From the IMG/VR virus record IMGVR_UViG_2698536571_000003: DNA of 4,815 bases; one strand, written 5' to 3'. The stretch is from a virus. Taxonomy: Duplodnaviria > Heunggongvirae > Uroviricota > Caudoviricetes. Below are positions 1,134 through 4,815 of this stretch, one piece after another. Position 1 is the first letter of the stretch. Each line of letters begins with the position of its first letter. Below the pieces are notes generated by a model. That model was given only the letters and a program-made list of their open reading frames with translations, made no database searches and was not told the DNA's origin. The position numbers and the translations under genes are program-made.

Positions 1134-1191
1134 TAATTATTCTCACTTGTAGGGAGGGGCGGGGCAAATCCCTGTGACCTGACGTCTTCCG
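1134..1191 (+). other. Candidate cos / terminase recognition region (left flank only; remainder is in the N-run)
   Basis: Non-coding G-rich stretch (GGGAGGGGCGGGGCAAATCCCTGTGACCTGACG) between the HNH stop and the terminase small subunit, where HK97-like phages carry cos. Loosely resembles the lambda cosN left end (GGGCGG...GACCT) from memory. Positional inference only. Confidence 0.3.
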
Positions 1192-1365
1192 NNNNNNNNN
1201 NNNNNNNNNNNNNNNNNNNNNNNNNNNNNNNNNNNNNNNNNNNNNNNNNNNNNNNNNNNNNNNNNNNNNNNNNNNNNNNNNNNNNNNNNNNNNNNNNNNN
1301 NNNNNNNNNNNNNNNNNNNNNNNNNNNNNNNNNNNNNNNNNNNNNNNNNNNNNNNNNNNNNNNNN
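1192..1365. other. Run of 174 N (assembly gap or masked sequence)
   Basis: Unbroken n characters from 1192 to 1365. Confidence 1.
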
Positions 1366-1366
1366 G

Positions 1367-1681
1367 CAACTGACAACCAAAGAACTCTGCGGTCAGGGCC
1401 TGCTGTGCGTGACTGACCTGGCGGTACTTGAGCGGTGGTGCGTGGCCTATGAGTTCTGGCGACGTGCCGTGAAAAATATTGCCATACAGGGCAACACCAT
1501 CACCGGTGCAATGGGCGGCAGGGTCAAAAATCCGGAGCTGACCGCCAAAAAAGAACAGGAGTCCGAGATGAGCAGCACGGGGGCAATGCTCGGACTCGAC
1601 CCCAGCAGCCGCCAGCGTCTGATTGGCCTGGCGGGGCAGAAGAAAGCCACTAACCCGTTTCTGAAAATTATCGAATCATGA
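1367..1681 (+). CDS. terS: Terminase small subunit (P27/HK97 gp1-like), C-terminal 104 codons; 5' end lost in the N-run
   Basis: The frame is open from the first base after the gap to TGA 1679-1681 (...[35 protein letters not shown]...[13 protein letters not shown]). Stop overlaps the large-subunit start (ATGA at 1678-1681). Identity rests on position and coupling to the large subunit; the GTG at 1409 in the ORF track is an internal codon. Confidence 0.75.
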
Positions 1682-3411
1682 GCCGGAAATCTTACCCCAA
1701 CGTAAATGCTGCAAATCAGTATGCCCGGGATGTCGTGCGCGGAAAGATTGTTGCCTGCCAGTTTGTGATTCAGGCCTGCCAGCGCCATCTTGATGACCTG
1801 ATGGCGGAAAAAAGTAAGTCGTTTCGTTACCGCTTCGACAAGGACCTGGCTGAACGGGCCGCGAAATTTATTCAGCTGTTGCCGCACACCAAGGGGGAGT
1901 GGGCATTCAAACGGATGCCCATCACGCTGGAGCCGTGGCAGCTATTTGTGATCTGCTGTGCGTTTGGCTGGGTCAATAAAGGCACCCGGTTGCGCCGCTT
2001 CCGGGAGGTGTACACCGAAATCCCCCGTAAGAACGGCAAATCAGCAATCTCTGCCGGTGTTGCCCTGTATTGTTTTGCCTGTGATAACGAGTTTGGCGCG
2101 GAAGTGTATTCCGGTGCCACGACAGAGAAACAGGCGTGGGAAGTCTTTCGCCCGGCGCGACTGATGTGTAAACGCACACCCATGCTGACGGAAGCGTTCG
2201 GGATTGAGGTTAACGCCTCAAACATGAACCGTCCGGAGGATGGCGCGCGGTTTGAACCGCTGATCGGCAACCCAGGTGATGGTTCATCACCCCACTGTGC
2301 CGTGGTTGATGAATATCACGAGCATGCCACCGATGCGCTTTATACCACAATGCTTACCGGGATGGGGGCGCGACGTCAGCCACTGATGTGGGCCATCACC
2401 ACCGCCGGGTACAACATTGAGGGGCCGTGCTACGACAAGCGGCGGGAAGTCATCGAGATGCTCAACGGCTCGGTGCCTAACGATGAACTGTTCGGGATCA
2501 TCTATACCGTTGATGAAGGTGACGACTGGACCGGCCCGCAGGTGCTGGAAAAAGCCAATCCAAATATTGGCGTGTCGGTTTATCGCGAATTTTTGTTAAG
2601 TCAGCAGCAGCGTGCGAAAAATAACGCCCGTCTGGCAAACGTCTTTAAAACAAAACACCTCAATATCTGGGTGTCGGCGCGTTCGGCGTATTTCAACTTG
2701 GTGAGCTGGCAGAGCTGCGAGGATAAATCACTGACCCTTGAGCAGTTCGAGGGGCAGCCGTGCATTCTGGCCTTTGACCTGGCGCGTAAGCTGGATATGA
2801 ACAGCATGGCGCGACTTTATACCCGCGAGATTGACGGTAAAACGCATTACTACAGTGTGGCCCCGCGTTTCTGGGTACCGTATGACACGGTGTACAGCGT
2901 CGAGAAAAATGAAGATCGACGGACAGCCGAACGCTTTCAGAAATGGGTGGAAATGGGCGTTCTGACCGTTACCGATGGTGCGGAGGTGGATTATCGCTAC
3001 ATCCTCGAGGAGGCCAAAGCGGCGAACAAAATCAGCCCGGTCAGTGAGTCACCCATCGACCCCTTCGGGGCGACCGGGTTGTCACATGACCTTGCTGATG
3101 AAGACCTGAATCCCGTCACTATCGTCCAGAACTTCACCAATATGTCCGATCCGATGAAAGAGCTGGAAGCAGCGATTGAATCGGGACGTTTTCATCATGA
3201 CGGCAATCCCATCATGACCTGGTGTATCGGCAACGTGGTCGGCAAAAACATGCCGGGTAACGATGATGTGGTGAAACCCGTCAAAGAGCAGGCGGAAAAC
3301 AAAATCGATGGTGCAGTTGCGCTGATTATGGCGGTTGGCAGAGCCATGCTGTACGAGAAAGAAGACACGCTGTCTGACCACATTGAGTCCTACGGGATCC
3401 GCTCGCTTTAA
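1678..3411 (+). CDS. terL: Terminase large subunit (ATPase/nuclease), 577 aa
   Basis: ATG 1678 to TAA 3409-3411. Walker A-like PRKNGKS (about 2020-2045), Walker B-like CAVVDEYHE (about 2300-2325), and a C-terminal RNase H-like nuclease region with acidic residues ([21 protein letters not shown]). Confidence 0.95.
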
Positions 3412-3422: not shown

Positions 3423-3605
3423 ATGATCATGCTGATTCTCGCGCCTCTGGTGGGCGTGCTGGGTGCGCTTTTGCTGGCGTATGGTGCCTGGCTGATTTAT
3501 CCCCCGGCGGGTTTTGTTGTTGCCGGGGCGCTGTGCCTGTTCTGGTCGTGGCTGGTGGCGCGATATCTCGACCGTACACGGCAGTCTGTCGGCGGAGGTA
3601 AATAG
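3423..3605 (+). CDS. Small hypothetical membrane protein, 60 aa, two predicted transmembrane helices
   Basis: ATG 3423 with an upstream SD. Two hydrophobic helices ([26 protein letters not shown] / [16 protein letters not shown]) and a basic C-terminus; E. coli-like codon usage (CTG, GCG). Stop TAG 3603-3605 overlaps GTG 3605. No family recognised. Confidence 0.55.
3551..3558 (+). other. Chi site (5'-GCTGGTGG-3')
   Basis: Exact octamer on the + strand inside the small membrane ORF; this is the only exact occurrence I found on either strand. Confidence 0.8.
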
Positions 3606-4761
3606 TGTTCTTTTCGGGATTATTTCAACGAAAAAGCGATGTGCCGGTGACCACGCCAGCAGAACTGCTGATGCTATCGGGCTGTCATACGACACCTATA
3701 CCGGAAAGCGGATCAGTAGCCAGCGGGCCATGCGCCTGACGGCGGTCTATTCTTGCGTCAGGGTGCTGGCAGAGTCTGTTGGTATGCTGCCCTGCAGTCT
3801 CTACAAAATCAGCGGTACCCTGAAAACACGGGCGGTGGATGAACGACTGCATAAGTTGGTTTCGGCAAAACCTAATGGCTACATGACACCGCAGGAATTC
3901 TGGGAGCTGGTTATTGTCTGCCTGTGTCTACGGGGGAATTTTTACGCCTACAAGGTAAAGGCACTGGGAGAAGTGGTGGAGCTTCTTCCGATAGATCCGG
4001 GCTGTGTGGAACCGAAGCTGAACAGCCAGTGGCAGCCGGTTTATCAGGTGACGTTTCCGGATGGTTCCGTGGATGTGTTGACCCAGAATGAAATCTGGCA
4101 TGTGCGCACCCTGACGCTGGATGGACTTGTCGGGCTGAATCCCATTGCGTATGCGCGTGAGGCCATTTCACTGGCAGCGGCAACCGAGGAGCACGGTGCC
4201 AGGTTGTTTAGTAATGGTGCGGTGACATCCGGTGTGTTGCGTACGGAACAAAAGCTCACGCCGGATGCTTACGAGCGTCTGAAGAAAGATTTTGAGGAGT
4301 GTCACACGGGGCTTGGCAATGCTCACCGCCCGATGATTCTGGAAATGGGGCTGGACTGGAAGTCGATGGCGCTGAACGCCGAGGACAGTCAGTTCCTGGA
4401 AACCCGCAAGTTTCAGCTGGAAGAAATCTGTCGTCTGTTCCGGGTGCCGTTGCACATGGTGCAGAACACCGATCGCGCCACCTTCAACAATATCGAAGAG
4501 CTGGGGCTGGGATTTATCAACTATTCACTGGTGCCGTATCTGACCCGCATCGAACAGCGGATCAACACCGGACTGGTACGAAAAAGTAAGCAGGGCGTTT
4601 ATTACGCCAAATTTAACGCCGGGGCGTTACTGCGCGGGGATATGAAGTCCCGTTTTGAAGCCTACGCCACCGGGATCAACTGGGGAATTTACTCTTCCAA
4701 TGACTGCCGCGACCTGGAAGATATGAATCCGCGTCCCGGTGGTGTAATGCCGATCAGTTAA
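3605..4761 (+). CDS. Portal protein, HK97 family; 5' end uncertain because of an apparent -1 frame break between 3605 and 3736 (possible pseudogene or assembly indel; alternative start ATG 3730)
   Basis: Stop TAA 4759-4761 is firm. The portal-like frame carries motifs typical of HK97-family portals (RLTAVYSCVRVLAESVGMLP, WHVRTLTLDGLVGLNPIAYAREAISLAAATEEHGARLFSNGA, LEEICRLFRVPLHMV). That frame has no ATG/GTG/TTG with an SD between TTG 3520 and ATG 3730, whereas GTG 3605, preceded by GGAGG (3594-3598), opens a different frame that runs 44 codons to TGA 3737. Confidence 0.85.
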
Positions 4762-4815
4762 GGATCAGTTGACCGATCCAGTGGCTGTGTAAGAATCCGG
4801 AAACGCTCACTTGTT

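Follow-up and report, generated by a model that had tools for sequence, protein, structure and literature searches.

The run of Ns at positions 1192–1365 of the 4,815-nt stretch of phage DNA analyzed here (the window) is an artefact of a draft assembly, and the cos site and small-terminase gene (terS) start that it hides are already known. In our reading, to which we assign a probability of about 90%, the 174 N are the insert-size estimate of a scaffolder in a short-read draft, and the true content of the gap is 242 nt, comprising a cos core of the SfI/SfV/SfIV/phiP27 type and the start of terS.

The N-run is the only one in the window, is exactly 174 N long, and is accompanied by no other N; as a property of the record and not a statistical pattern, it raises no issue of chance. 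On its right side, base 1366 completes a TGG codon, and the terS frame, whose next codons begin at 1367 and 1370, is open to the stop at 1679–1681. With the gap counted as 174 nt, the same frame 5′ of the gap holds a TGA at 1175–1177 and no ATG, GTG or TTG in 1178–1191. The original prediction had the N-run, its length, the stop, the missing start codon and the open frame past the gap right, and reasoned from them that the start of terS must lie inside the gap if the length is accurate. The start does lie inside the gap, where the ATG corresponds to hidden bases 64–66, 8 nt 3′ of an AGGAG, but the length is wrong (174 versus 242). Because the N count falls 68 short and the true length is not divisible by 3, the in-frame stop at 1175–1177 is irrelevant and a reading-frame argument across the gap is without force.

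The hidden letters are found in relatives of the window, which were gathered by an exact look-up of the HNH protein encoded upstream of the gap and by a scan of viral contigs with the 36 bases left of the gap. This 36-mer matched 12 viral contigs, none of them with N, and its single match in metagenome_contigs is an N-free, divergent contig. One viral contig, IMGVR_UViG_2693429622_000001 (L024), shows 0 mismatches to the window over 1191 nt of left flank and 3422 nt of right flank, with 242 nt between the two; a second (L026) shows 0 mismatches over 665 nt of left and 935 nt of right flank, again with 242 nt between. Seven further contigs, complete genomes included, carry the same 242 nt and differ from the window by two mismatches each (window positions 160 and 187), and in the complete genomes L007, L009, L011 and L013 the flanks are joined by one uninterrupted 242-nt sequence. 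Across the 136 fetched loci with both anchors, the fill is 242 nt long in 134 and 241 nt long in 2, with N in none, and a pattern scan found the flanks 228–256 nt apart in at least 120 viral contigs and 160–189 nt apart in none. The 242-mer is present at ≥95% identity in 1111 of 5426 complete E. coli genomes. The real DNA at the gap is almost certainly the 242-nt stretch of the flank-identical contigs, to judge from their matching flanks, and it is an ordinary, very common sequence.

It is most unlikely that the isolate really has 174 nt at this place, for example through a 68-nt deletion or rearrangement that removed cos or the terS start. The prophage is indeed degenerate (portal frameshift, IS4 insertion), and terS is broken in relatives by a frameshift (L001) or an inserted element (L023), which speaks for this reading. 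However, a spacing near 174 nt was seen at 0 of the 136 loci and in none of the viral contigs scanned, the contigs with 0 mismatches have 242 nt, and 174 nt is too short to hold the 179 coding nt of terS together with a ribosome-binding site. In addition, the N counts of sister scaffolds differ at the same locus, as estimates would.

These sister scaffolds were found via the 90-aa open reading frame called right after the gap (window 1409–1681). Scaffold CWTT01000217.1 (GCA_001254315.1), 5254 nt long, shows 0 mismatches to the window on either side of the gap; its N-run holds 273 N where the real length is 255 nt, starts 13 nt earlier than that of the window, and ends at the same base (N, then GCAACTG). 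Scaffold CWTL01000222.1 (GCA_001253255.1) has 286 N at the locus, with the same right edge as the window, and a further run of 250 N within the large-terminase gene (terL). The window, the sister scaffolds and further short contigs of the prophage each end in the first 30–100 nt of IS4, and contigs that stop inside a repeat are the usual signature of short-read assembly. Three different N counts (174, 273 and 286) for one locus, none of them equal to the real length, indicate that the counts are a scaffolder's insert-size estimates. Length-preserving masking or a reference-guided consensus would give 242 N.

The odd length had been taken at the outset to suggest either a size-estimated scaffold gap or deliberate masking, and the sister scaffolds with 273 and 286 N agree with the former. 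Placement of the N-run on purpose by the data provider is very unlikely, even though the description of genome_contigs mentions a few stretches masked as N-runs and 174 is no round placeholder length. Masking is normally length-preserving and would here require a shortening by 68 nt; the flank of the window has no match in genome_contigs; native N-runs (273 and 286 N) with an identical right edge occur at this locus in the independent GenBank WGS scaffolds; and cos or a terS start is no obvious target for masking.

The size-estimated gap recurs at this locus, and the break is probably caused by a segment common to a co-resident prophage. This reading of the cause is drawn from two observations: three loci (L010, L014 and L015) combine the same HNH gene and left flank with a phiP27-type terS, and about 10% of the E. 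coli genomes with the 242-mer hold more than one copy of it. An unrelated IS element, moron gene or homing element concealed between the HNH gene and terS is barely credible by comparison with the 242 nt that lie uninterrupted in all complete genomes of the lineage. IS copies are a classic cause of assembly gaps and the lineage is rich in them, with IS4 at 4745 and IS66 and IS3-family genes beside the same HNH gene in L010 and L015, yet an IS has at least 700 nt and the scaffolder's estimates in three drafts are 174–286 nt. The original prediction had allowed that the filled sequence might contain an unrelated gene or insertion; the identical contigs show cos and the terS 5′ end instead.

In those contigs the fill opens with GACTGCCCGCCCCATCGTTTTTTTATACCCGCGAAAAATGAAATTTAACCAGGAGTGCCGCAT and then runs from ATGGCTGGAACG to ATCATGTG. 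In L024 it spans 1307–1548, and its insertion between window positions 1191 and 1366 yields a reconstruction of 4883 nt. Its elements are, in order, GAC, the cos 10-mer TGCCCGCCCC, ATCG, a tract of seven T (T7), AT, ACCCGCGAAAAA, TGAAATTTAACC, AGGAG, TGCCGCAT, and the ATG followed by terS codons. The terS part of the fill amounts to 179 coding nt, that is, codons 1–59 and two bases of codon 60. The cos 10-mer occupies hidden bases 4–13 (L024:1310–1319) and is present in every contig identical to the window, while being unreadable in the window itself. Sequencing of SfI virion ends by Sun et al. revealed the cohesive end as a 10-nt gap, 5′-TGCCCGCCCC-3′ (PMC3636060). In the records of SfI and Edwardsiella EPP-1, the first base is the one directly after the 10-mer, and the annotated cos-site of phiP27, CGCCCGCCCC, lies at the homologous place. 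Judged by these matches, the gap hides the cos cutting site already known from SfI. The claim that the gap removes cos and the 5′ end of terS thus stands, on the evidence of the flank-identical contigs, for the cut site, the downstream half of cos and the terS start, but not for the upstream part of cos, which is readable at 1152–1170. Similarly, the packaging element is unreadable in the window as regards its cut site, as had been stated, but its letters exist in public identical contigs.

In HK97, the cos ends have 10-nt 3′ overhangs, TerS binds 15 bp at +15 to +29 beside an A-tract, and the HNH protein gp74 stimulates cleavage by TerL (PMC11331095; PMC9410871). In the hidden stretch, the T7 tract (+5 to +11) and ACCCGCGAAAAA (+14 to +25) are conserved across phages of E. 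coli, Klebsiella and Edwardsiella, and the neighboring bases vary. By analogy, ACCCGCGAAAAA at +14 beside the T-tract is likely to be a TerS binding site. On the model of SfI and HK97, TerS would bind just 3′ of the cut site, likely at this element, and would position TerL; TerL and the HNH protein encoded immediately upstream would then nick in a staggered manner around TGCCCGCCCC, giving 10-nt cohesive ends. A search of the intergenic region for terminase-binding direct repeats, which had been proposed as a check on the filled sequence, returned only weak two-copy matches of the kind expected by chance.

The visible 3′ two-thirds of terS (1366–1681, + strand; PF05119, TIGR01558) comprises the last base of codon 60, codons 61–164 and the stop. 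The reconstructed 164-aa TerS matches PF05119 with E = 3.7e-20 and 72.6 bits (cut-off 24.7) over residues 57–147, and TIGR01558 with E = 3.3e-20 and 72.2 bits (cut-off 45.6); for the visible 90-aa fragment alone, a PF05119 match is on record. Comparison with HK97 gp1 by BLASTP gave E > 6, and gp1 is in neither PF05119 nor TIGR01558. These three tests thus gave no sign of homology between TerS and HK97 gp1, and the profile matches assign the small terminase to the P27 family and not to the HK97 gp1 family. It groups with the small terminases of phiP27, SfV, SfI, SfII, SfIV and ST64B, and has no match by sequence among the solved structures in the PDB. The codons removed by the gap encode a basic, highly conserved N-terminal arm, RRPKPTARKxLAGNPGKRALNKxEPxFTPI, which the Pfam domain does not cover.

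The terS stop overlaps the terL start (ATGA, 1678–1681), a signal of translational coupling. Inactivated copies of terS are seen in several relatives: an inserted element lies in the gene in L023 (after 9246), the copy at L001:4473–4966 is frameshifted, and L152, L154 and L157–L160 have premature stops just past the region equivalent to the gap. The same 90-aa fragment is called as an open reading frame in relatives with a broken terS. With several relatives carrying an inactivated terS, decay of the packaging module is common. In the TerS of Edwardsiella EPP-1 (OQ910326.1, L033:48–653), a stretch of 37 aa is perfectly duplicated in tandem within the protein (ELAGNPGKRTLNKNEPVFTPIAGVEPPEWFSEDGLLL twice), near the end of the genome; this duplication may be either real or an assembly artefact.

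Upstream of the gap, the window shows a putative cos sub-site at 1152–1170 (+ strand), a G-rich box, GGGAGGGGCGGGG, followed by CAAATC, and then the visible part (1171–1191, + strand) of a spacer between this motif and the cos cut that, in alignments, is variable in sequence between lineages and fixed in length. The intergenic regions of five lineages were aligned, those of L024, phiP27, Klebsiella ST101-KPC2phi6.3, Edwardsiella EPP-1 and HK97 (loci compared: window 1152–1170, L024:1266–1285, L006, L032, L034 with L033, and L031 with L030). In all five lineages, exactly 34 nt separate the G-rich box and its (C/T)AAATC from the 3′ edge of the 10-mer, or from the record junction; the motif lies upstream of the top-strand cos nick, and the middle of the spacer varies. 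The fixed 34-nt spacing suggests a sub-site that is recognized by a protein. A function as a second cos sub-site, either as a cosQ-like termination signal or as a docking site for the HNH protein or TerL, is possible but doubtful. Since the motif is common to HK97 and the P27-type phages despite their unrelated small terminases, it would point to recognition by TerL or the HNH protein and not by TerS.

A conserved hairpin or intrinsic terminator, in which GGGGCGGG (1157–1164) would pair with CCCGCCCC of the cos 10-mer ahead of the T7 tract, was considered, but as a conserved structure it was rejected. Within the lineage of the window the arms match perfectly, and their complementarity is lost elsewhere (7/10 in the Klebsiella phage, 7/10 in EPP-1 and 5/10 in HK97). 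The fold is no better than that of shuffled sequences (z = −0.93), and a terminator scan found nothing.

The genes around the gap, all on the + strand, were called from Pfam and NCBIfam scans and from the RefSeq annotation of relatives. The window starts within a phage lysozyme (endolysin) gene, the 3′ part of which spans 1–279 (PF00959, E = 1.8e-27), and continues with the Rz spanin gene (276–740; PF03245, E = 2.8e-52), in which Rz1 is embedded in another frame (496–678; PF06085, E = 6.4e-20). The HNH endonuclease gene follows at 783–1133 (PF01844, E = 1.6e-16, in agreement with the RefSeq annotation in relatives); its 116-aa product is the counterpart of HK97 gp74, with 34% identity by BLASTP (E = 2e-10). 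Beyond terS lie terL (1678–3411), encoding 577 aa with ATPase and nuclease domains (PF03354, PF20441) and matching the HK97 TerL structure 6Z6D with E = 5.4e-26, and the gene for a YmfR-like 60-aa protein (3423–3605), which takes its name from a RefSeq homologue, "protein YmfR," and has no Pfam match. The stop of the YmfR-like gene (3603–3605) overlaps the GTG start of the portal gene at 3605, again a coupling signal.

Two features of the left flank are of note in their own right. The 116-aa HNH protein of the window recurs unchanged in L010, L014 and L015 (4001–4981), where a near-identical Rz–HNH flank is joined to a phiP27-type terS and terL. These loci diverge from the window from about 1164–1175, which places a mosaic junction just upstream of cos. 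At positions 160 and 187, within the lysozyme gene, the window, L024, L026 and L155 have T, and the other near-identical contigs have G and C, respectively; on this pattern, the two T residues mark a sub-lineage.

The order HNH–cos–terS–terL that the original prediction gave for the module is borne out by the profile scans and the identical contigs. Its description of the module as HK97-like holds for the HNH protein and TerL, which are homologous to gp74 and gp2, but not for TerS, which falls in the P27 family. By these comparisons, the module resembles that of HK97 in layout and in two proteins out of three, and stands outside the HK97 TerS family. As in HK97, the HNH gene lies upstream of cos and terS and terL lie downstream, with TerL (6Z6D) and the HNH protein (gp74) homologous; HK97 also has the G-rich box and CAAATC exactly 34 nt from its genome end and, no more than 30 nt downstream of the cut, an ACCCG motif accompanied by an A/T tract (PMC11331095). 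In contrast, HK97 gp1 has no detectable similarity to the TerS of the window, the HK97 10-mer is CGCCGCCAAA, and the T-tract of HK97 lies at +24 versus +5 here.

The window closely resembles the serotype-converting phages of Shigella flexneri. The fill holds the exact cos 10-mer of SfI, TGCCCGCCCC, and the stretch from cos to the terS start is 100% identical to its counterpart in the records of SfV, SfIV and SfI. In terS, terL and portal, the window has 93.6–97.7% DNA identity to SfI, SfV, SfII and SfIV, with which it also shares the order HNH, cos, terS, terL, small membrane protein gene and portal. Unlike in these phages, the lysis–HNH side of the window belongs to another mosaic, and any single phage record covers at most about 70% of the window; the G-box of the window has G, not T, at 1164; and the copy in the window is that of a defective prophage (portal frameshift, IS4) seen through an assembly gap. 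The Stx-phage phiP27 (AJ298298), the type member of the P27 small terminases, has the same gene order, a cos-site, CGCCCGCCCC, at the homologous position, the G-box/CAAATC motif at the 34-nt spacing, ACCCGCGAAA at +14, and a terS in PF05119. Its DNA identity is about 84% and its TerS is only 49% identical, and it differs in the first base of the 10-mer, in the middle of the spacer and in the region just before the terS start.

The state of the prophage is seen at the right end of the window. Alignment to the intact portal gene of L001 identifies the portal (3605–4744, + strand) as a pseudogene that has lost 1 nt after 3666 and breaks off at 4744, short of its 3′ end; its downstream frame still matches PF04860 (E = 1.9e-107). 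The truncation is due to IS4, whose left end (TAATGCCGATCAGTTAAGG...) occupies 4745–4815 (+ strand) within the portal gene and was identified by its matches in E. coli genomes: this segment matches the flank of an "IS4-like element IS4 family transposase" in 2591 E. coli genomes, and the IS4 transposase gene comes next in L008, L009 and L012. The frame-shifting deletion is common to L024, L007 and L009, and both portal defects are present in the identical contigs. An intact portal followed by HK97-fold head genes was not found in the window, where the portal is broken and beyond which the head genes lie; relatives of the prophage carry an HK97-family protease and a capsid gene. A portal that is both frameshifted and interrupted by IS4 indicates that the prophage is defective and its packaging module a relic in this lineage, and on this reading of its genes the prophage is unlikely to package DNA.

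Taken as it is, the N-run (1192–1365, no strand) is a scaffold gap of estimated size in place of 242 nt, as established from the flank-identical contigs and the sister scaffolds. Public contigs of identical sequence suffice to fill such a gap in silico, and PCR is not needed to read the hidden element. Further practical lessons are that the lengths of scaffold N-runs are unfit for reading-frame arguments and that the prophage is a packaging-dead relic. The biological weight of the gap is small, the hidden element being well known and present in about one in five complete E. coli genomes. Of mild interest, as a by-product, is the constant distance of 34 bp from the upstream motif to the nick across HK97 and the P27-type phages.
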